Of a stretch of 55,950 nt of DNA, positions 26,028 through 36,299 are shown one piece after another. Position numbers and translations under genes: made by a program. The notes below the pieces were generated by a model. That model did not search any database, was not told the origin of the DNA, and was given only the letters and a program-made list of their open reading frames with translations. The stretch comes from Dehalococcoidia bacterium (GTDB lineage: Bacteria > Chloroflexota > Dehalococcoidia > GIF9 > UBA5629): positions 1 to 55,950 of the forward strand of contig JBEKIW010000007.1 in NCBI GenBank assembly GCA_050011565.1, given 5' to 3'. Position 1 is the stretch's first letter. Each line of letters opens with the position of its first letter.

Positions 26028-27113
26028 TTATTGCCAGGCTCTCAACCTCTTAAAGGCGGATATTTTCTCACTATCGCCGACCTTAGCTTTCTCCAGCGCC
26101 TGGTGGAGAATTTCGATACTTTTGTCGTAATTTTCTTTGTCGACGGGGTAGGGGTGGCCATCTTTGCCGCCGTGGGCGAAGCTGTACCGTGCGGGGTCAC
26201 GAAGGCTGACGGGGACGTCATAGATAAGCTCCGATATCAGGCTCAGGGCGCGCAGGGTTTTGGGGCCGACTCCTTCTAGGCTTAATAGATTTTCAAAATT
26301 TTCCGGCTGGTGCTCGTAGGAGATTAAAAGCGTCTTATACAGGCGGTCGGGGTGTATATCATCGAGATTTAAATGATGGCGCGACGGCAGGTCCAGTGTC
26401 TTGAGCCTTTTTAGCTGGCTGATAATCTTTTCCGGTTTTTCTTCAATGGCAATCTGGGGGATGGTATGGCGTGCCGCTTCGCTCTCCGCGGCCACCAGGT
26501 TCAAGACTTCGCCTGTGGCTTGCGAGCAGATGGCGGAGTGAGGTTCGCAGACAAAATCGGACAAGTTTTCGCCCAGCCAATGATAACGTCGGGCATAACG
26601 GTTGCTCTCGTTCATGCCCTGCTGGACTACCGACCATGAGCCATCGGTGGTGAAAATGAAGACATGGTGGTAGAGCTGATAGCCGTCCTGAAGCGCTGAG
26701 TTGTCAACCTTGGCTGCCATTCGGCTGGCGTAGACCAGCGATGAGGAGTCCGATTTTAATAGATGGCCGACGCTTTCTATTTCGCTTGGAGTTTTCCTCG
26801 ACGTTCTGCCCTTGCCGCCGGCCACGAATAAGCCGAGGTCGGTTTCCAATCCCTTGATTCCTTCTTTAAGAGCGCCGCAGACGGTGGTGGTAACGCCGCT
26901 GGAATGCCAGTCGTAACCCAGGACGCAGCCGAATGCCTGGAACCAGAACGGGTCCGACAGGCGGCGGAGCATCTCCTCCGGCCCGAACTCGGCAGTGATG
27001 GCAATGGTTATTTCCCGGGCCAGTTTGGTCATGCGGTCGAATAGCCACCGCGGCGCCTTGCCGTAGTGCAACGGCAGATTGGCGGTACCGGTTCGTTGTG
27101 CTGAGTTGGTCAT
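26028..27113 (-). CDS. DUF763 family protein
   Basis: Motifs LPLHYGKAPRWL, RLSDPFWFQ, DWHSSG, KVDNSALQDGY.LYHH and FAHGGKDGHP. Its start overlaps the arsM stop (ATGA). Confidence 0.92.
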   Translation of the reverse strand: MTNSAQRTGTANLPLHYGKAPRWLFDRMTKLAREITIAITAEFGPEEMLRRLSDPFWFQAFGCVLGYDWHSSGVTTTVCGALKEGIKGLETDLGLFVAGGKGRTSRKTPSEIESVGHLLKSDSSSLVYASRMAAKVDNSALQDGYQLYHHVFIFTTDGSWSVVQQGMNESNRYARRYHWLGENLSDFVCEPHSAICSQATGEVLNLVAAESEAARHTIPQIAIEEKPEKIISQLKRLKTLDLPSRHHLNLDDIHPDRLYKTLLISYEHQPENFENLLSLEGVGPKTLRALSLISELIYDVPVSLRDPARYSFAHGGKDGHPYPVDKENYDKSIEILHQALEKAKVGDSEKISAFKRLRAWQ

Positions 27114-27943
27114 TTGCCGGGCTTTACCGCATGGACTTTTATGCTTTTGATTGAGCCGCCGAGCTTTTTCAAATCCGTCTGCGATATTCCCAAATCATTG
27201 ACCAGCGCCTCTATGGTAGGGTCTTTCACCGCGTAATCGCTTGGAAAAGACGTCTCGTCAACTATAGTTACTTCCTTGAATCCGGCAGCATTAATATTGT
27301 CCAGGTATTCATCTTTCATGGCGGCACCGGCTACGCAGCCGATATAAGCTGCCACGGACTTCTTTATGGAATCCGGAAGCTGACTCATTAAGACTATATC
27401 GGAGACCATTAATCTGCCGCCGGGTTTTAGCACCCGGAATGCCTCGCGGAAGACCCTGTCTTTTTCCGGCGACAGGTTGACCACGCAGTTGGAGATAATT
27501 ACATCAACGTAATTATCGGCTGTGGGCAGGTTTTCTATCTCGCCCAGCCTGAACTCTATGTTGTCATAGCCGCCCTGGCGGGCATTTTCCCGCGCTTTTT
27601 CAATCATTTCCGGCGTCATATCAACACCGATGACCTTGCCGGTTTTGCCGACAATATTAGCCGCCAGGAAGCAATCGAATCCGGCGCCGGAGCCGAGGTC
27701 CAGGACAACCTCGCCTTTTTTAAGAGAAGCCAGGGCCACGGGGTTGCCGCAGCCGAGGCCCAGATTAGCTCCTTCCGGGACCGATTCTATATCCTGGTCG
27801 CTATAGCCTATCCTTTTGCTGATGTCCGTGGCTACGTTTGATGAGCAGCCGCACGTACTTTGCGGTGCGCAGCAAGAGCTGCCGCTTTTAGCAACCTGGG
27901 CATAGCCTTCTCTGACAGCTTTTCTGACCTCTTCTTTTTTCAT
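27110..27943 (-). CDS. arsM: Arsenite S-adenosylmethionine methyltransferase
   Basis: N-terminal CC..CGC, LGLGCGNP, VLDLGSGAGFDC, IISNCVVNL and GCVAGA. Confidence 0.95.
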   Translation of the reverse strand: MKKEEVRKAVREGYAQVAKSGSSCCAPQSTCGCSSNVATDISKRIGYSDQDIESVPEGANLGLGCGNPVALASLKKGEVVLDLGSGAGFDCFLAANIVGKTGKVIGVDMTPEMIEKARENARQGGYDNIEFRLGEIENLPTADNYVDVIISNCVVNLSPEKDRVFREAFRVLKPGGRLMVSDIVLMSQLPDSIKKSVAAYIGCVAGAAMKDEYLDNINAAGFKEVTIVDETSFPSDYAVKDPTIEALVNDLGISQTDLKKLGGSIKSIKVHAVKPGK

Positions 27944-27990
27944 TTTCTGACCTCCGATTTTAAAAATTTAGTGAATTGGGGTGTCTTTTT

Positions 27991-28030
27991 AGCTTTTTAC
28001 TACCCTGACCGGGCAGTTATGCTAGCCCCC
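27991..28030 (-). promoter_or_regulatory. Candidate bacterial SECIS element
   Basis: After UGA (28033-28031) the RNA reads GGGGGC UAGC AUA ACUGCCC GGUCA GGGUAGU AAAAA GCUA: a 7-bp stem whose GGU-containing loop starts 20 nt after the UGA. There is no U-tract after the stem on either strand. Confidence 0.55.
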
Positions 28031-28750
28031 TCAGCCTCCATAGCCGCAAGAGCCCCCATCGCTCGGTGGGCATGGAGGGGACGGCGGGGTTATCTGAATG
28101 TCAAATACCGGGCTGGGCGGTTCCTTAACTGTGAACTGCCCGCTGAGGTCGCCAAGGGCGACTTTATAGGTCCCGGGTAAACCCTTTGATACCTTAAAAC
28201 ACAGCATGCAGTTGGCCCCGGCGGGTACATTCAGTTTCTGGGTCTGGTTGGTGACGCCGTCTATCTTTAGTTCGGCCGTGTAACTACCCTGGCTGCCTCC
28301 GATATTGGTTAATGTAGCGGTTATAACCGTAGTTTGGCAGACATCGACCTCATCGGGATTTATTGCCAGGTTGGAGAGACGGAAGTCCGGAGGCGACGGT
28401 TTTTGCACGGTGAGGGTTGACTCTTTGTCGCCCACCGAAACTTTGTAGCCTCCGGCATAGCTTCTGGTAAGCTCGAATGTCAAAAGCTCTGATTGCCCGG
28501 GAGCCAGCGTAACGCTTTTCCTGCTGTCGGCGACACCGTTGACCATTAAAGGAATATTATACGTATCAGTTTCGGAGTTAATATTTCTGACCTCAGCTAC
28601 AACAGTCACTTTCTCACCTGTCGCGACCTTTGTAGGCGCCATATTAAAGGACAACACTTCGTAGCTTGGATGAGCCTCAACGCAGGCTTGTAGTAGACCA
28701 AGGCTAGCCAAAGCCAGTAAACATATTGCGCCAATAGTTTTTGTCTTCAC
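28031..28750 (-). CDS. Lipoprotein with two CARDB (Ig-like) domains and a Cys/Gly tail; candidate selenoprotein extending to 28022
   Basis: Lipobox LQAC and two CARDB-like domains (V.N...ETDTY...L.VNG; LTNIGG..GSYT..LKIDG). The tail is PPCPPSDGGSCGYGG-TGA-GGG-GGC-TAG. Confidence 0.85.
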   Translation of the reverse strand: MKTKTIGAICLLALASLGLLQACVEAHPSYEVLSFNMAPTKVATGEKVTVVAEVRNINSETDTYNIPLMVNGVADSRKSVTLAPGQSELLTFELTRSYAGGYKVSVGDKESTLTVQKPSPPDFRLSNLAINPDEVDVCQTTVITATLTNIGGSQGSYTAELKIDGVTNQTQKLNVPAGANCMLCFKVSKGLPGTYKVALGDLSGQFTVKEPPSPVFDIQITPPSPPCPPSDGGSCGYGG

Positions 28751-28801
28751 AGTTTAAGGCCTCTCTTAGCTACTGAGCTTAATTCAATTTTATACAGTAT
28801 G

Positions 28802-29503
28802 TTAAAGGATTACAATCAACCAGAAGCCTGCCACGATAAGAAGTACGCCCGAAGCCATGCGAACAGGCCCGGCGACCTTATTAGCAACGCCTGTCATTTT
28901 GCCCAGTCCTATACCTAATATAGCTGCCACCATGGGAAGACTGTACCCGATGGCGAATGCGGCAAGTATCAGGGCGCCCCAAACTCCCTCGCCTTTCAGG
29001 ATAGATAAGCCCAGAACCACGGGTAGAATCATCGGACCGCAGCATGCCATAGTGTAGGTTATGCTGGCACCACCGACGCCAAGTCCCATAACCGAAGCCC
29101 CGATAAAACCACGTGGAAGATTCTTTTTGACCGGATTAAATGACGGAATGCGGAAGGGCAGAAGATTAAGTGCAGCAAATCCGAAGAAAATGGTTATGAC
29201 GGCTATAAGTAGCTTGCCGTACAAACCGAATGTGCTTCCTGCCACCTGCCCGATGTAACCGACGAGATATCCCGCTGCTGATAGGGCAATGACAGTTCCC
29301 AGCATAAAGAAACCGGCTATTACCAAAATGTCCCTTTTCTGTGCCTCATCCCGGGAGCCGGCATATCCGACGACAGCGGCTATCAATGGAGCACTGCAGG
29401 CAATACAACCGATCGCCGTAATCAAACCCAGTAGGAATCCTGCCGGCAGGACCAGTATGCCAAATTGTGGGGCATTAAAGACTTGTTGAATCCACTCTTC
29501 CAT
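28802..29503 (-). CDS. CcdA/DsbD transmembrane electron-transfer protein with extra cysteines
   Basis: Six or more TM helices; GLITAIGCIACSAPL and MACCGPMILP occupy the two CcdA Cys positions; FAIGYSLP. Start taken as ATG 29503 (MEEWIQ). Confidence 0.82.
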   Translation of the reverse strand: MEEWIQQVFNAPQFGILVLPAGFLLGLITAIGCIACSAPLIAAVVGYAGSRDEAQKRDILVIAGFFMLGTVIALSAAGYLVGYIGQVAGSTFGLYGKLLIAVITIFFGFAALNLLPFRIPSFNPVKKNLPRGFIGASVMGLGVGGASITYTMACCGPMILPVVLGLSILKGEGVWGALILAAFAIGYSLPMVAAILGIGLGKMTGVANKVAGPVRMASGVLLIVAGFWLIVIL

Positions 29504-29508
29504 GCCAG

Positions 29509-30198
29509 CTATTTCCCACCGCAACAGCCGCTGCCTGGGGCACAACCTGGGGCACAAACAGGAGGTTGTAAAACCGTCAGATATGTCTGCAGAAGATTTT
29601 CTTCTGTGATGTCACCGGTCATAATCGCTCCATTGCCGCTGACGCTAATGGCCAGAACCGCCGGTACCCCTCCAATACCCAGGCGGCGCATCGTAATTGA
29701 GAATTCGGGGTCGTCAGGGCTCAGGGTTATTGTCTCCACACGTGCACCTCTGGCCTCGATTTTTGCTGTGGCGTCGGAAATCAGGTTGGTAAGTGTTTTA
29801 GTTGATTTAATGTCATTATCTGACAGAGTCACAAAAATAAAATCATGGTCAGCAAATTTAGCAGCGAGACTTTCCGACAACTTTAAGTCTCCGATGCCCG
29901 TTGCCTTAGGAAAATTTATGCTCGTGTATGAACCTGCCCTAGGAACATTTAGGCTCGTGTATGAACCTATTAACGGCACATTGCCCAAGGGCCCACTCGA
30001 AGCGGCGCTGTCACGTGTTGTCAGGGCATAGGTCACGGCAACTGCAATCAGAAGTATTCCTAAGGCGAAGACGGCAATCTTCCACCATGGCTGCCTGCTT
30101 GGGGGTTGCGGCTTAGTAGTATCCGCCGGGGACGGACAGCATCCCTTCTGGTCGCAACAATCTGTCTTTTGCACCTTTTTAAAACCTTTATCGCTCAT
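29509..30198 (-). CDS. Single-pass membrane protein with Cys-rich termini and a thioredoxin-like domain
   Basis: N-terminal DCCDQKGCCP, one TM helix, a GVPAVLA strand resembling the cis-Pro loop, and C-terminal CAPGCAPGSGCCGGK. SD AAGGAGA. Confidence 0.78.
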   Translation of the reverse strand: MSDKGFKKVQKTDCCDQKGCCPSPADTTKPQPPSRQPWWKIAVFALGILLIAVAVTYALTTRDSAASSGPLGNVPLIGSYTSLNVPRAGSYTSINFPKATGIGDLKLSESLAAKFADHDFIFVTLSDNDIKSTKTLTNLISDATAKIEARGARVETITLSPDDPEFSITMRRLGIGGVPAVLAISVSGNGAIMTGDITEENLLQTYLTVLQPPVCAPGCAPGSGCCGGK

Positions 30199-30229
30199 TA
30201 CGCAGTCTCCTTTCTAGCATCAGAAAAAA

Positions 30230-30559
30230 TCAAACGTTGACAGGCTGCTTGAAAAACTCAGCAAGGTCATCCAATGTATTTGGGTCAACCCAGCACTCAA
30301 CGGTTTGTCCTCGTCTTCTCATTTTTATCAGACCTGCTTGGTAAAGCTCCTTGATGTGGTGGGAAATGGTTGATGGAGCAATTCCTAAGTCTTTGCCAAG
30401 CTTGCCGACGCACTCGTACATCTCCGTTTCCGTATTGCAGGCACCTCCGGGAAGACAGCATGAAGCCAGGCGCATAAAAATGCTCAAGCGGTGTGGATTC
30501 GACAGCGCCTTGAATGCTCCGGCGAGCCGCTCCGAGCTGTCATTTCGAAAATTCGACAT
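30230..30559 (-). CDS. arsR: ArsR/SmtB family repressor (second operon)
   Basis: Motifs FKALSNPHRL, ASCC, ECVGKL and STISHHIKELYQAGLI. True start ATG 30559. Confidence 0.88.
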   Translation of the reverse strand: MSNFRNDSSERLAGAFKALSNPHRLSIFMRLASCCLPGGACNTETEMYECVGKLGKDLGIAPSTISHHIKELYQAGLIKMRRRGQTVECWVDPNTLDDLAEFFKQPVNV

Positions 30560-30596
30560 GTTTCGAATTATAAGCACAAGAACAAGCCTTTGTCAA
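30550..30596 (-). promoter_or_regulatory. Consensus promoter plus operator; leaderless arsR transcript
   Basis: TTGACA-18-TATAAT-7 nt-ATG. The inverted repeat AATTCGA-N6-TCGAATT (30550-30569) covers the start codon and the edge of the -10 box. Confidence 0.85.
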
Positions 30597-30626: not shown

Positions 30627-31709
30627 TCATGTTTGGTCATGGTTAGAGGCTAATTGCTTGGCAAAGAACCTTCGCTGGAAATACAAAGCTACATTGACCA
30701 GGCTTACCAATACCGGCACTTCCACCAGCGGCCCAATAACGGCGGCGAAGGCCTCACCGGAGCCGATGCCGAATACGGCCACGGCCACGGCGATAGCCAG
30801 TTCAAAATTATTGCTGGCGGCAGTGAAGGCAATGGCGGCCGTCTTGGAATAATCGGCCCCTATTTTCTTACCCATGTAAAAAGAAACCAGGAACATTATC
30901 ACGAAGTATATGAGGAGCGGGATGGCAATGCGTACAACGTCCAGCGGCAATTGGACAATGATTTCACCTTTCAGGGAGAACATGACAACTATCGTAAATA
31001 AGAGAGCTGCCAGGGTTACCGGGCTGATTCTGGGTATAAATTTAGTTTCATACCACTGGCGTCCTCTTGCCCTGATAAGAGCAAAGCGGGTAATCATTCC
31101 GCCGAAAAATGGTATGCCGAGGTAAATGAGTACGCTTTGAGCTATCTGGGCTATGGTTACGTTTACGGCGGAGCCTTTCAGCCCGAACCAGACCGGCAGC
31201 ACCGTTATGAAAATATAGGCGTAAACCGAGTAAAACAGTATCTGGAAAATCGAGTTAAAGGCCACCAGCCCGGCAGCGTAATCGGTATCGCCTTTAGCCA
31301 GTTCATTCCAGACAATAACCATGGCAATACATCTGGCGAGCCCTATTAGAATAAGGCCTGCCATGTAATCGGGATAGGCGCGCAGGAAAAGAATGGCCAG
31401 CAGGAACATCAACACCGGGCCAATCAGCCAGTTCTGTATCAGAGACAGGCCGAGTACTTTCCAGTTGCGGAAGATGAGGGGCAGGTCCTCGTATTTAACT
31501 TTTGCCAGCGGCGGGTACATCATCAGGATAAGCCCGATGGCTATAGGTATGGAAGTGGTATCGACTTGAAACAATGAAATGAAACCGGACACGGAAGGCA
31601 CGAAATAGCCGAGTCCGACTCCGAAGCCCATAGCCAGGAATATCCAGAGAGTCAGGAAACGGTCTAGCAGCGAGAGTTTACCGGTCGTAGATTCCGGCTG
31701 GTTTGCCAT
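30627..31709 (-). CDS. acr3: ACR3 family arsenite efflux transporter
   Basis: Motifs [31 protein letters not shown] and [17 protein letters not shown]. Confidence 0.96.
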
Positions 31710-31721
31710 AGTTTTTACCCC

Positions 31722-32555
31722 TCACTCTAAAAGTTTGGCTAAAGCGCGACGGTTTTCAGCAAATTCAGGCTGCTCCAGGTAAGGGCAATCCTCAAGGCGA
31801 CACTTACCTTTAGCCAGGTCAATGGCGAAGGCAAGGCAGGTCTTCTTGCCGCATTTCTGGCAATCGGTCTGGGGCAGTAGCTTATACAGCACCAGTCCCA
31901 GGCCCATCTTCGATTTGCCGGGTTCGACGGCCTGCTGCGGCTGGCTTAATTTAGCCACAATTTTGTGGACGATAGCCGGCTCAGGATAGGCTCCCATGTC
32001 ATAAAGCGTGTAATTCATGAATGCTACCGGATTCTCCTGGTAGCAGCTCCGGACCGCCTCTTCAATCACTTTTGGATTCAACCCCGGGACTTTGATGTCT
32101 CTTTCTCCTGGTTTGCAAAGCAGGTTGATGATGCTGACGATTTGCTGGTTAAATCTGTCTATTAGCTCCTTCGGTATATTGGACAGATACGGGGTAAGGG
32201 CTTTAGAGCCGATGATACGTTTAGCTTCGTCGATGCCGTTCTGTTTAAGTGCCAGCAGCGCTTCGCCGGGCAAATGCCCGGTTGATTCCCTGCCGCAGAG
32301 CACGATGTAACGAATATTCGGGTTAGCTACGATATTGCAGATTATCTTCTCCAGCCCTAAATTCTCGGTTTGGAGCATTCCGGAAAGGGCGGCACCTGCG
32401 TCTGCGGCGCACATAACGAGCTCGTTTAAATCCGGCGGTATCGCGAAGTCAAAGGTATCCAGAATGACACAAACGGCTACGGGAGAGTAGTCGTTACCTC
32501 TAACGTAACGGCCTTCCTCTGGGGGATAACCATCAGGTGGTTTAACTTTAAGCAT
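31722..32555 (-). CDS. Soluble MtrA-like corrinoid-binding domain fused to a C-terminal [4Fe-4S] domain (AcsC/CdhE/RnfB type)
   Basis: MtrA motifs G.Y.RGN.YSPVAV, GAALSG.LQTENLGLEKII.NIVANPNIRY.VLCG.ES.GH..G (Co-ligand His) and RIIG...PYL.N.....DRF..Q. C-terminal LLPQTD-C-x2-C-x4-C-x16-CP. No membrane anchor. Confidence 0.88.
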   Translation of the reverse strand: MLKVKPPDGYPPEEGRYVRGNDYSPVAVCVILDTFDFAIPPDLNELVMCAADAGAALSGMLQTENLGLEKIICNIVANPNIRYIVLCGRESTGHLPGEALLALKQNGIDEAKRIIGSKALTPYLSNIPKELIDRFNQQIVSIINLLCKPGERDIKVPGLNPKVIEEAVRSCYQENPVAFMNYTLYDMGAYPEPAIVHKIVAKLSQPQQAVEPGKSKMGLGLVLYKLLPQTDCQKCGKKTCLAFAIDLAKGKCRLEDCPYLEQPEFAENRRALAKLLE

Positions 32556-32570
32556 TAGCCTTTAACTACG

Positions 32571-33047
32571 TTATTCTTCTCCAGCCAGATATACACGAAT
32601 CCTGGTATTCACCAGTCTATCGAGTGCCTCGTCATCATCTTTCACCAACAAAATTTCCGGTACAGCGATAATGTGTTCGGTATCCGCTCTAACTACGTTT
32701 ATGAATAGTGAGAGAGATGTTGCTCCATACTTGTTAACGATAGCCGCATTGTTCTTGTCATTCAGATCAATACTTTGGAATGTCAATTTGCCACTGGCCA
32801 GTTCCTCAGGGAAGTTAAAAAATAAGGTACTTTGGATATATTCACCCGGGGTTGCCTGACAGTGGCATATCTCGCTATCGTAAAAATAAACGACATCTAT
32901 TCTATCCGGCGGACCAAGCTGTTCCTTTGGTAAATTCGTTGCCGGTGTTGGATTGGAACAGGAAGACAGCAAGCCAAGCACCAGCAGAGAAAGTAAAAGA
33001 ATGTAAGTTTTATTAGCTTTCTTGTTAGCTTTAACAAATATGTTCAT
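32571..33047 (-). CDS. ArsF-like thioredoxin-fold lipoprotein, paralogue 2 (CxC motif)
   Basis: Lipobox LSSC, DRIDVVYFY...CHC, and GKLTF..IDL.D..N..IV.KY..LFI; homologous to 33777-34325. Confidence 0.78.
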   Translation of the reverse strand: MNIFVKANKKANKTYILLLSLLVLGLLSSCSNPTPATNLPKEQLGPPDRIDVVYFYDSEICHCQATPGEYIQSTLFFNFPEELASGKLTFQSIDLNDKNNAAIVNKYGATSLSLFINVVRADTEHIIAVPEILLVKDDDEALDRLVNTRIRVYLAGEE

Positions 33048-33072
33048 ATTTTTAGCACATGCTTATAATTTT

Positions 33073-33777
33073 CTAGGATTGTATCCACAGCACCACATAA
33101 TATATACCAACTCCTATAAAGATAACGGAGACTATTATACGGATAATTCGTTCGGCGCGGGTGATGGCATTAAGCCAGGTAGCAACTCCAGCTACACCAG
33201 CAGACAGAAGCGTACCGAATACTAAAACAGGCAGCCCGGTGCCGATGGCGAATACTGCGGGCAGCGCCACGCCGCCGGTTGACTTGAGGGCCACGGGTAT
33301 CAGTGCGCCGAAGAATAGTACGGCGCTATAGGGGCAAAAAGCCAGGGCGAAAATGGCACCCAGCAGAAATCCGCCTATCATACCCCACTGTGCTACTTTA
33401 CTCCCCAACGAGGCTAATATGTTACCTCCCGTGCCGAAAGAGAGCCTGTCGATGAATAGCATAAGCAGTCCCACTATAATCAGCAGCGGTCCCAGGACCC
33501 GTTCACCGACGTCTTGAATGGTTGCAGAGACCCCCGGGATTTCCAGGCCGACCACGATGATAAGCACGCCAAGAACAGAATAGGAGAACATGCGACCCAA
33601 AGTATAGAGGGAGCCGGTAATGACTGCGTACTTACGGTCCGTCACGTTGCGCGTGATGTAGGCCACAGCAGCGATGTTAGTAGCCAGAGGGCATGGGGCA
33701 ATGGCGGTTACTAACCCCAAAAGCAGTGCCGTAAGCACCGGGATATTAGGACCGGACAAAATGCTGCCCAAGTCCAT
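33073..33777 (-). CDS. arsG: ArsG-family/DsbD_2 (CcdA-like) membrane protein
   Basis: Motifs TAIAPCPLATNIAAVAY, YTLGR, FALAFCPYSAVLFFG and FAIGTGLP. Confidence 0.8.
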   Translation of the reverse strand: MDLGSILSGPNIPVLTALLLGLVTAIAPCPLATNIAAVAYITRNVTDRKYAVITGSLYTLGRMFSYSVLGVLIIVVGLEIPGVSATIQDVGERVLGPLLIIVGLLMLFIDRLSFGTGGNILASLGSKVAQWGMIGGFLLGAIFALAFCPYSAVLFFGALIPVALKSTGGVALPAVFAIGTGLPVLVFGTLLSAGVAGVATWLNAITRAERIIRIIVSVIFIGVGIYYVVLWIQS

Positions 33778-34325
33778 TATTCTTCGCCCCTTAGGCTTCG
33801 CTCGATAACGTTCTTGACCTGCTGGTCGAAGCCCGCTTTATTGGTTCTGCAGCTCCAGGACCAGATGTCCTGTATATCTTTAATATTATCAGTGCCATCC
33901 TTCACAGTATCGATGAACAATTGTGAGCCGACAGCACCGTATTTTTTGACGATATCGGTATTTTTACTGTCTCCTATGTCATATACCCCAAAAGTCATCT
34001 TGCCGCCATTTAACTCGTTCTGAAAATATGTGTTCACGACATAGCGGATGCGCTCCTCGAAACATAGGCAAGTTGGGCAGCGTTGGGGACGGTGGAAATA
34101 GACGACGTCTACTCTGTCAAGTGAGCCAGTAGACTCATCCGGGATCTGCGAAGTTGACGAGTTGTCTGATGGCGCCGTTGTCATTTCAGACGGCGCGGCA
34201 GGTTCATCTGGCGAGGTCGGTTGTGCAGGCGGACTTGAGCAGGCAAAGAAGAGCAATAGGATAGCCAGGATAGCGATTATGATTAAGTGCGTCTTTGTCC
34301 TGAGTGATAAATTCATGTTTTTCAA
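33777..34325 (-). CDS. arsF: ArsF-family thioredoxin-fold lipoprotein
   Basis: Lipobox FFAC and VDVVYFHRPQRCPTCLCFE; coupled to the ArsG-like gene. Confidence 0.78.
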   Translation of the reverse strand: MKNMNLSLRTKTHLIIIAILAILLLFFACSSPPAQPTSPDEPAAPSEMTTAPSDNSSTSQIPDESTGSLDRVDVVYFHRPQRCPTCLCFEERIRYVVNTYFQNELNGGKMTFGVYDIGDSKNTDIVKKYGAVGSQLFIDTVKDGTDNIKDIQDIWSWSCRTNKAGFDQQVKNVIERSLRGEE

Positions 34326-34375: not shown

Positions 34376-34642
34376 TCAGGCGCCTTTTTTCTGCTCTTCT
34401 CCAGCCAGGGAATTTATTATAAGCTGTGTAACTTCTGCTTTCGAAGGCACCTTACCAGAGCTGATTACCTGTTCATTTATTACCAGGCCGGGTGTGGTCA
34501 GGACGTTGTAAGCCATGATTTGACGCATATCCTTGACCTCCTCTACGGTGGCGTCGATACCCAGCTCTTTCACCACCTCTCTGGTGGTCTTTTCCAGCTG
34601 GCGGCACCTGGAGCAGCCCGTTCCCAGAATTTTTATATTCAT
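34376..34642 (-). CDS. Small redox-active disulfide protein (MTH895/Thioredoxin_3 family)
   Basis: MNIKILGTGCSRC...TTPGLVINE.V.SSGKVPS. SD GGAGG before ATG 34642. Confidence 0.92.
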   Translation of the reverse strand: MNIKILGTGCSRCRQLEKTTREVVKELGIDATVEEVKDMRQIMAYNVLTTPGLVINEQVISSGKVPSKAEVTQLIINSLAGEEQKKGA

Positions 34643-34729
34643 AGCAGTCGCCTCCATTTCGATTTTTCGGTTAATCCTTAGTTGGATTTACCTACATTAA
34701 AGTAATCTCTGATGTTAGCTTTTGACGGC

Positions 34730-35866: not shown

Positions 35867-36232
35867 TCAAGCGGTGCTTAGCTTCCTAACCACACAGTTT
35901 GGACCTACTCTTTCCGTCTGTTGCAATCGCTGTCTATCCAGTAGGGCTATTTCGTTTCCTTCCAGCGCTTTCCCAACGGCTTCAACCAGGTTGGTGTAGT
36001 GCTGCTTTAAACCTTCCCTATCGATGGAATATAGTGCCCAAAGTCCCTCTCGCCTGAGCTTCAGGAAGCCGGCATCATAGAGGGCACTCAAGTTCCTTGA
36101 AGCCCGGGACTCGGAGATGTTGAGTACCTGCATAACCTCGCAGACGCAGCATTCGCGCTCCAGCAGCAGGTTAAGAATCCTAAGCCTGGTTTCGTCCGAC
36201 AGGGCCTTGAAGGCTTTAACTAACTCTCTCAT
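35867..36232 (-). CDS. arsR: ArsR family As(III)-responsive repressor (first operon)
   Basis: FKALSDETRLRILNLL..ECCVCE contains the alpha3 CVC site. ATG 36232 (GTG/TTG alternatives up to 36238). Confidence 0.93.
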   Translation of the reverse strand: MRELVKAFKALSDETRLRILNLLLERECCVCEVMQVLNISESRASRNLSALYDAGFLKLRREGLWALYSIDREGLKQHYTNLVEAVGKALEGNEIALLDRQRLQQTERVGPNCVVRKLSTA

Positions 36233-36248
36233 CACCAAACTCCATTAC

Positions 36249-36299
36249 TATATGCGCATTTACGCATATATTATAGATAAATAGTAATACGCAGGTCAA
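36249..36299 (-). promoter_or_regulatory. ars promoter with ArsR operator
   Basis: TTGACC-18-TATAAT (36299-36270); perfect inverted repeat TATATGCG-N6-CGCATATA (36249-36270) over the transcription start. Confidence 0.88.

Follow-up and report, generated by a model that had tools for sequence, protein, structure and literature searches.

Why does an arsenic resistance (ars) operon of a Dehalococcoidia bacterium contain a homologue of MtrA, a corrinoid protein of methanogens? The question arises from a DNA stretch of 55,950 nucleotides (positions 1 to 55,950 of contig JBEKIW010000007.1, GenBank assembly GCA_050011565.1; Chloroflexota, Dehalococcoidia, GIF9, UBA5629), which is called the window below. 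The reverse strand of the window carries, at 31722-32555, a gene for a 277-aa protein in which an MtrA-type domain is fused to an iron-sulfur (Fe-S) domain. We found a deep clade of MtrA homologues that crosses phyla and is embedded in ars islands, in anaerobes of both the bacterial and the archaeal domain. The window protein is a member of this distinct clade, which appears to be widely transferred. Judging from the sequence, it may be a cobamide methyl carrier acting on arsenic; we give this reading slightly less than an even chance, and methyl transfer to or from arsenic is its speculative part. A B12-type protein in the ars operons of many anaerobic phyla is a concrete candidate gene for anaerobic arsenic methylation or demethylation, which bears on how arsenic is speciated in paddy soils, peat and sediments. 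Our literature searches for MtrA, corrinoids or cobalamin together with arsenic or ars genes (supplementary tables were outside their scope) found no description of an MtrA-type protein in ars islands, and the matches to "MtrA" were mostly the Shewanella cytochrome or other proteins. The initial annotation knew of no characterised ars gene with such an architecture, and none was found in the literature searched.

To answer the question, the protein itself has to be described. It had been said to combine an intact MtrA core, including the histidine that ligates cobalt, with a C-terminal cluster domain that replaces the MtrA membrane anchor and has the cysteine spacing of AcsC/CdhE. Its parts are located as follows.

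31722..32555, reverse strand: MtrA-fold protein fused to an Fe-S domain of the corrinoid/iron-sulfur protein (CFeSP) type, 277 aa, ATG start (Pfam, NCBIfam, AlphaFold2 (AF2), Foldseek)
32112..32549, reverse strand: MtrA domain, residues 3-148 (Pfam)
32361-32369, reverse strand: T63-E64-N65, inside the MtrA domain
32337-32339, reverse strand: clade-specific Cys73, inside the MtrA domain
32274-32276, reverse strand: His94, inside the MtrA domain
31953..32111, reverse strand: well-ordered extension, residues 149-201, with C171-Y-Q-E (Cys171 at 32043-32045) and D186-x-G-A-Y-P-E-P
31914..31952, reverse strand: disordered linker, residues 202-214, predicted local distance difference test score (pLDDT) below 50
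31779..31877, reverse strand: PF04060 Fe-S domain, residues 227-259, with Cys232, Cys235, Cys240 and Cys257

Using a check run with hidden Markov models from Pfam, we confirmed both domains. The MtrA family PF04208 matched residues 3-148 with E 4.6e-40 (137.5 bits at a cut-off of 25), and the FeS family PF04060 matched residues 227-259 with E 6.5e-12 (45.4 bits at a cut-off of 23). The NCBIfam subfamily NF002126 scored 170 bits, above its cut-off of 161. The motif TENLGLEKIICNIVANPNIRY is present in the 277-aa protein, GHLPG carries His94, and the Fe-S cysteines are spaced C232-x2-C235-x4-C240-x16-C257-P, as had been read from the sequence. A search of the PDB sequences gave the cytoplasmic MtrA homologue 5laa as the closest solved relative (E 2.2e-34), and residues ~220-262 matched the N-terminus of the CFeSP large subunit (4djd_C, 2h9a_A) with E ~1e-9. 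The TIM-barrel and B12 domain of PF03599 was not matched; only the Fe-S domain of ~50 residues aligns (NF003195, 54 bits at a cut-off of 306). The AF2 model built from a 100-row alignment has a mean pLDDT of 90.2. It predicts an ordered core of the MtrA fold up to residue 201, a disordered linker at residues 202-214 and a small helical Fe-S domain at the C-terminus. Using Foldseek, we found that the core matches the Rossmann-like MtrA fold (5laa_B, TM-score (TMt) 0.93; 5l8x_A, TMt 0.87, E 1.2e-16), and that the C-terminus matches the [4Fe-4S] domain of CFeSP, which is N-terminal there (2ycl_A, root-mean-square deviation (rmsd) 1.2 over 55 columns). Neither Pfam nor the AF2 model gave a membrane anchor or a C-terminal transmembrane helix in the protein, and a soluble helical Fe-S domain takes this place. 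The initial description of the protein was borne out in each of these points.

We also assessed whether the cofactor site of MtrA is retained. According to the structural paper PMC4915002, His84 of MtrA is the lower cobalt ligand, is hydrogen-bonded to Glu54 and lies beside Asn55. The nucleotide tail is held there by Thr53, Gly57 and Asn64 and is stacked between Tyr18 and Val61, and the stretch after the last core helix bends back to the side of the corrinoid, where it apparently stabilises the cofactor. In the HMMER alignment to 5laa, His84, Glu54, Asn55 and Thr53 correspond to His94, E64, N65 and T63 of the window protein, and Gly57, Asn64, Tyr18 and Val61 correspond to G67, N74, Y17 and I71. 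The cobalt-ligating histidine, whose presence had been noted, is kept in 87/87 clade rows, as is T63 (87/87), while N65 is found in 85/87 and E64 in 69/87. For the tail pocket, the 100-row alignment shows no variation at G67 and N74, and at least 90% of its rows have Y17. Other residues mark the clade itself. Cys73 is present in 82/87 clade rows and in 0/18 outgroup rows, Cys171 in C-[YF]-Q-E is present in 87/87 (3/18 outgroup rows have Cys there), and D186-x-G-A, part of the DxGA[YF]PEP extension, is a further mark. By analogy with the stretch that bends back in MtrA, the clade-specific ordered extension at residues 172-201 may lie near the cofactor. We infer that the 277-aa protein binds a cobamide in the base-off/His-on form via His94 and carries a [4Fe-4S] cluster.

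At E <= 0.001, a large protein collection contains 2,668 relatives. Of these 2,668, the best 120 are 77-92% identical to the window protein, nearly all are exactly 277 aa long, and both domains are present in 120/120. They come from metagenome-assembled genomes (MAGs) of Chloroflexi/Dehalococcoidia and, where named, are called "tetrahydromethanopterin S-methyltransferase subunit A", "(Fe-S)-binding protein" or "hypothetical". The first of these names can mislead metabolic reconstructions of non-methanogens. A scan of one genome per species gave 97 relatives, of which 80 were kept; together with loci from a genome search they make up 105 rows with an MtrA domain. Before trees and counts we dropped L085, L087 and L089, which are the places of L083, L077 and L054, then L009, a near-copy of L008, the split or frameshifted genes of L010, L028 and L032, and matches below 55 bits or 150 aa. 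In L010, many neighbours of the split or frameshifted MtrA/Fe-S gene are affected too, and in all three loci this looks like an assembly error and not like decay.

In a quick tree of the 105 rows, 87 rows including the window group together and 18 stand outside, and this split has an SH-aLRT (approximate likelihood-ratio test) support of 100. Among the outside rows are the canonical methanogen MtrA (L082, L083), a pair of short paralogues from Methanosarcina (L086, L088) and 13 Chloroflexota homologues that are distantly related. A careful tree of 62 rows (49 clade, 13 outside), which omitted 43 of the 105 rows, namely close relatives plus the four outgroup rows that were weakest, separates the clade from canonical MtrA by a branch of length 1.62 with support 100/100. 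The phylogeny against MtrA, suggested initially as a check, places the protein in a separate deep clade. By record title, the clade members belong to Chloroflexota, Methanobacteriota (Methanomicrobiales, Methanosarcinales, ANME-1 relatives), Nitrososphaerota/Bathyarchaeia, Actinomycetota, Planctomycetota, Verrucomicrobiota, Lentisphaerota, Nitrospirota, Thermodesulfobacteriota and others. Within the window's class the gene is patchy: it was found in 14/301 genomes sampled from the class and in 0/7 other genomes of the window's family. This distribution suits an accessory, transferable gene.

The initial annotation treated the corrinoid/Fe-S fusion as the core of the finding. The architecture is real, and it turned out not to be the defining feature, because most of the ars-linked clade has no Fe-S domain. 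The domain is restricted to Dehalococcoidia-type sequences and two MAGs labelled Deltaproteobacteria, and the 14 Fe-S-fused rows of the careful tree lie on one side of a branch with support 99/94. Thus, the fusion is one monophyletic sub-branch, a local addition within the wider ars-linked clade. The C-x2-C-x4-C-x16-C motif is present in 25 intact Fe-S-type relatives, and 3 more relatives are split or frameshifted. Nearly all other clade members have 225-260 aa (a few are longer, up to 426 aa) and end in "ITWRVTQPW.EP" with a Lys/Glu-rich tail. Two archaeal proteins, from an ANME-1 relative (L029:5449-6318) and a Methanosarcinales MAG (L043:3772-4644), carry ~80 extra residues at the C-terminus, where other members have the Fe-S domain or the charged tail. 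This stretch has no Pfam match and looks winged-helix-like by eye; in the tree, the Fe-S-fused branch has both proteins as its sisters (98/93). Five Dehalococcoidia islands (L021:6952-7494, L019, L022, L032, L110) additionally encode a separate protein of 181 aa that ends in this PF04060 domain and whose first ~120 residues match no Pfam family.

The decisive question is whether the genomic neighbours of the clade are ars genes. We compared all open reading frames (ORFs) of the loci by phmmer (hits of at least 40 bits) with the ars proteins of the window and with LMWP-ArsC, DGC, DUF169 and FmdE representatives from the loci. The counts refer to 86 clade rows, without the window; L040 and L091 are one place counted twice among them, both times as "none" for ars neighbours. 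Acr3 lies within 300 bp of the gene in 28/86 rows and within 5 kb in 54/86. Within 5 kb we also found ArsP_1 permease (37), ArsR (32), ArsE (31), ArsG (18), ArsF (17), LMWP-ArsC (16) and ArsM (13), and within 300 bp LMWP-ArsC in 11 rows and ArsM in 4. At least one of Acr3, ArsM and LMWP-ArsC is present within 5 kb in 58/86 rows, and any ars-island gene in 65/86. Where at least 5 kb is available on both sides, 25/30 rows have Acr3, ArsM or LMWP-ArsC. Such neighbours were found in 0/17 distant homologues of the same phylum and at neither of the canonical mtrA loci L082 and L083. At E <= 1e-10, the identity of the neighbours was confirmed for 50/50 Acr3-like proteins (TIGR00832) and 15/15 ArsM-like proteins (NF008823). 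Gene orders vary by lineage (MtrA-Acr3, Acr3-MtrA, permease-MtrA-ArsR, MtrA-ArsM-Acr3), so the linkage is not one inherited block. A survey of homologue neighbourhoods had been named beforehand as the test able to refute the arsenic link; it gave an ars association in many phyla, 58/86 against 0/17. The partnership with ArsM that was also proposed is not favoured: ArsM is within 300 bp in those 4/86 rows only, and it is common in the class with or without the gene.

A further link was seen outside the clade. The short 182-aa MtrA paralogue of Methanosarcina is present in 29/41 sampled genomes of the genus. It is ars-linked in 7/18 regions fetched (L088, L117-L122, L134 type), including 6/6 of those closest to L088. 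ArsM or Acr3 is adjacent in four regions, and the island also carries an ArsP_1 permease, ArsE and a DGC-domain gene. This looks like an independent second link between an MtrA-type protein and ars genes, in a culturable genus.

Several families of unassigned role recur in the ars islands of anaerobes: DGC (PF08859), DUF169 (PF02596), FmdE with a zinc ribbon (PF02663) and MauE/DoxX-thioredoxin fusions. Plasmids of PLSDB searched by tblastn gave 4 records, all distant (<60% identity, 53% coverage), with no clade member among them. The Planococcus plasmid homologues (NZ_MN657150.1, NZ_CP013660.2, NZ_MN657143.1) are 43% identical over residues 10-155. These three records are annotated as DUF4346 proteins, which suggests that DUF4346 and MtrA may be related folds; the fourth record has no annotation. 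Sequencing runs that contain the DNA are labelled peat, sediment and freshwater sediment; all are DNA runs, with no RNA run among them.

In the window, the gene is the seventh step of a unit of eight genes that runs from arsR to acr3 with intergenic gaps of -1 to 72 bp. The features around it, apart from the gene itself, are as follows.

36270..36299, reverse strand: promoter-like site TTGACC-18-TATAAT of the first ars unit, 11/12 consensus positions, a consensus match only
36250..36269, no strand: perfect palindrome ATATGCG-N6-CGCATAT (7-6-7), putative ArsR operator, directly after the -10 hexamer, single copy in the window
35867..36238, reverse strand: ArsR/SmtB repressor with ECCVCE (CVC-type motif), NF033788, 82.6 bits
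34730..35815, reverse strand: ArsP_1-family permease (PF03773), E 2.7e-75
34376..34657, reverse strand: thioredoxin-like protein of the MTH895/ArsE family, TIGR00412, 108.5 bits
33777..34325, reverse strand: ArsF-family protein, NF040494, 87.2 bits at a cut-off of 60
33073..33777, reverse strand: ArsG-family membrane protein of the DsbD_2 type, NF040495, 266.5 bits
32571..33047, reverse strand: second ArsF-like protein, NF040494, 55.9 bits, just below the cut-off of 60
30627..31709, reverse strand: ACR3 arsenite efflux transporter, closes the first unit, TIGR00832, 456 bits at a cut-off of 282.8
30567..30596, reverse strand: second promoter-like site, 12/12 consensus match, heads the second ars unit
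26028..30577, reverse strand: second ars unit, with ArsR2 (30230-30577), a Cys-rich protein (29509-30198), a DsbD_2-like protein (28802-29557), a CARDB protein (28031-28750), ArsM (27110-27943) and DUF763 (26028-27113)

The gene starts 15 bp after the second ArsF-like gene and ends 12 bp before acr3; both distances had been given initially and were reproduced. It shares the unit with recognised ars genes, in agreement with the earlier placement of the gene inside an ars unit headed by ArsR. It belongs to the first unit, because the second promoter-like site at 30596-30567 starts the second one. An operator had been placed at 36249. We did find a perfect palindrome at 36250-36269 behind the promoter-like site, but the pattern alone is not significant (at least one match in 20/100 shuffles), and its role as an operator is putative. 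The CVC motif in ECCVCE is at what we take to be the As(III) site position of classical ArsR. The first ars unit is probably transcribed together from an ArsR-controlled promoter, with As(III) as the likely signal and the palindrome as the likely operator. At gathering thresholds, Rfam gave no match in the window, hence no cobalamin riboswitch, and ARAGORN gave no tRNA there. Two ArsF-like genes flank ArsG in the window (32571-34325, reverse strand), and at least two ArsF copies are also found in the relatives L005, L008 and L010. The second ars unit follows acr3 directly and has a repeat that differs from that of the first unit, TTCGAAA...TTTCGAA. Its Cys-rich protein has no Pfam match. ArsM and DUF763 share 4 bp, where the start of the latter overlaps the stop of the former; L003, L005 and L010 have this gene pair as well.

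The genome of the window (2.0 Mb, 99.2% complete) encodes CobS and has 4 B12-binding-domain hits over the cut-off; from these sequences, it can probably use cobamides. The initial annotation had noted that no other mtr subunit occurs in the window. This holds for the whole genome, in which PF04208 gave 1 match, the gene itself, and MtrH (PF02007) gave 0. AcsC-like and AcsD-like genes lie beside a pterin-binding gene and a weak B12-binding hit on contig C2 (G000, 251807-260540). This cluster points to a methyl branch of the Wood-Ljungdahl type, which could be a methyl source or sink. The single LMWPc gene of the genome is on another contig, and the island of the window has no arsenate reductase. 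ArsM is present in 199/301 genomes of the class (198/300 without one unpublished genome, G605) and in 12/14 of those that carry the gene. We considered genome-level co-occurrence with ArsM as evidence and rejected it as uninformative, since ArsM is common in the class regardless.

What could the protein do? In the reading that we prefer, derepression of the ArsR-controlled promoter would yield a soluble MtrA-fold protein with cobamide bound base-off/His-on through His94, which would cycle between Co(I) and CH3-Co(III) with arsenic as the reaction partner. The methyl group of a pentavalent methylarsenical would pass to Co(I), in a reversal of oxidative methylation that leaves a trivalent product, and the resulting As(III) would be exported by the adjacent Acr3. 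In the alternative direction, CH3-Co(III) would methylate As(III), which is chemically just as plausible. The Fe-S domain of CFeSP serves reactivation and not catalysis: it restores Co(I) after oxidation. In the Dehalococcoidia form, the CFeSP-type [4Fe-4S] domain on its flexible linker would likewise return accidentally oxidised Co(II) to Co(I). We lean very slightly towards demethylation over methylation, because Acr3, and neither ArsM nor a route to volatile products, is the gene's usual neighbour (Acr3 adjoins it far more often than ArsM does, 28 against 4 within 300 bp) and because 12/14 class genomes with the gene already have the S-adenosylmethionine (SAM)-dependent ArsM. In a wider form, the clade would be the missing O2-independent enzyme of the As-C bond, a cobamide-dependent arsenical demethylase (or methylase), methanogens included, with the Dehalococcoidia version as a self-reactivating single polypeptide. 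We regard this wider form as possible and rather doubtful. In a 2026 preprint (bioRxiv 10.64898/2026.08.27.747368), anaerobic arsenic demethylation is driven by methanogens and its mechanism is unresolved. Methylcobalamin-dependent arsenic methylation in methanogens is, in a 2026 review (PMC13262295), a side reaction of MtaA.

Several observations weigh against a methyl carrier that acts on arsenic. The weakest point is the missing recurrent methyltransferase partner nearby. We clustered 441 unassigned neighbour ORFs and obtained LMWPc, DGC, DUF169, thioredoxin-like and FmdE families; no corrinoid methyltransferase of the MtaA, MtaB or MtrH type recurs beside the gene. Neither MtrH nor a RACo-type activator was found in the genome of the window. 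The Fe-S domain is missing from most clade members, and E64, the partner of the His ligand, is replaced by Ala or Pro in 18/87 clade rows. No ars gene lies within 5 kb in 21/86 rows, many of which are on short contigs; at least four of these (L056, L059, L068, L071) are true orphans with long flanks of unrelated housekeeping genes. The neighbours of orphan members (10 proteins) showed no alternative theme. Finally, the proteins of the window itself served as neighbour queries, which biases the survey towards islands like this one.

The absence of a recurrent methyltransferase nearby would fit a cobamide/Fe-S reductase, in which cobalt would relay electrons from the [4Fe-4S] cluster to an arsenical, in the manner of reductive dehalogenases or QueG. 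A pentavalent (organo)arsenical would be reduced to the exported trivalent form, or the C-As bond would be cleaved reductively. The Dehalococcoidia form does combine a corrinoid domain with one Fe-S domain, in an island that is rich in thiol-redox proteins (ArsE, ArsF, ArsG and DsbD_2 types) and lacks an arsenate reductase, the only LMWPc gene being on another contig. However, the PF04060 domain resembles that of CFeSP, where its role is reactivation, most clade members have no such domain, and where LMWP-ArsC lies within 300 bp (11/86) arsenate reduction is already covered. Moreover, all characterised MtrA-fold proteins are methyl carriers, according to PMC4915002. We consider a reductase unlikely.

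The clade-specific cysteines raise another explanation, in which Cys73 and Cys171 would make the protein a non-catalytic chaperone that delivers As(III) or the trivalent methylarsenical MAs(III) to Acr3 or the ArsP_1 permease, or a sensor, and cobamide would be at most structural. The distribution of both residues (82/87 against 0/18; 87/87 against 3/18) agrees with this, as do the loci, many in number, where Acr3 or the permease is the immediate neighbour, and a sensor could be imagined from the two archaeal members whose unconfirmed extra C-terminal domain resembles a DNA-binding one. Yet His94 and the cobalamin tail pocket are as strictly conserved as the cysteines, which is hard to explain without a cofactor. 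A complex prediction of Acr3 with the MtrA core (residues 1-205) gave an ipSAE of 0.00 in both runs, a value that counts neither for nor against binding. Such a function seems distinctly improbable to us. A general one-carbon corrinoid protein without an arsenic-specific role, hitch-hiking on mobile ars islands, is very improbable: the 21/86 members without an ars neighbour within 5 kb and the patchy occurrence (14/301 and 0/7 genomes) would allow it, but more than 10 phyla, bacterial and archaeal, show the linkage in varying gene orders, the nearest outgroups do not have it, and in the window the gene lies inside a transcription unit, 15 and 12 bp from an arsF-like gene and acr3.

The reading as a cobamide methyl carrier can be compared with the known systems. 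The window protein shares with MtrA of the methanogen MtrA-H methyltransferase (PF04208; PDB 5l8x, 8q3v) the fold (TMt 0.87), the His ligand, the T-E-N loop and the nucleotide-tail pocket. It differs in that the C-terminal membrane helix is missing and that its genome has neither an mtr operon nor MtrH, and it belongs to a separate clade (100/100) that has Cys73, C-[YF]-Q-E and the DxGA[YF]PEP extension and sits in ars islands. The cytoplasmic MtrA homologue 5laa of Methanothermus fervidus, whose function is unknown, is likewise soluble and of the MtrA fold, binds cobalamin, and is the top match in sequence and fold. However, it has ~170 aa, no Fe-S domain, Ala at the position of Cys73 and no YQE...DxGAYPEP extension, and the comparable Methanosarcina protein L086 lies outside the clade. 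With the CFeSP large subunit AcsC/CdhE (PDB 2ycl, 4djd, 4c1n), the window protein has in common the C-x2-C-x4-C-x16-C domain (rmsd 1.2-2.1 over ~55 columns) and its presence on the same polypeptide as the corrinoid domain. In AcsC/CdhE the Fe-S domain is N-terminal and is followed by the TIM-barrel and B12-domain of PF03599, whereas in the window protein it is C-terminal and the corrinoid domain is of the MtrA type. AcsC and AcsD are encoded by genes of their own at another place in the genome.

ArsM, a SAM-dependent As(III) methyltransferase, and ArsI, an O2-dependent C-As lyase, are likewise encoded in ars islands and form or cleave As-C bonds. The island of the window includes ArsM (27110-27943). 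The folds and cofactors of both enzymes differ from those of the window protein, which would use cobamide. ArsI needs O2, as stated in the preprint (bioRxiv 10.64898/2026.08.27.747368), and is therefore no option for strict anaerobes. Among published corrinoid systems with a link to ars genes, HgcAB, which methylates mercury, comes closest. HgcA and HgcB are a corrinoid/ferredoxin pair of anaerobes, often flanked by acr3, arsC, arsM and arsR according to PMC7438021, and in one strain they are controlled by an arsenic-responsive ArsR-like regulator. Thus, both systems pair a corrinoid with Fe-S in anaerobes and are tied to ars genes. HgcAB differs in its unrelated corrinoid fold (CFeSP-like, with a membrane domain), in consisting of two polypeptides, in its known substrate Hg(II) and in having no sequence relation to the window protein. 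If the reading as a methyl carrier is true, the clade would add to HgcAB a second, structurally unrelated corrinoid/Fe-S system with a link to ars genes.

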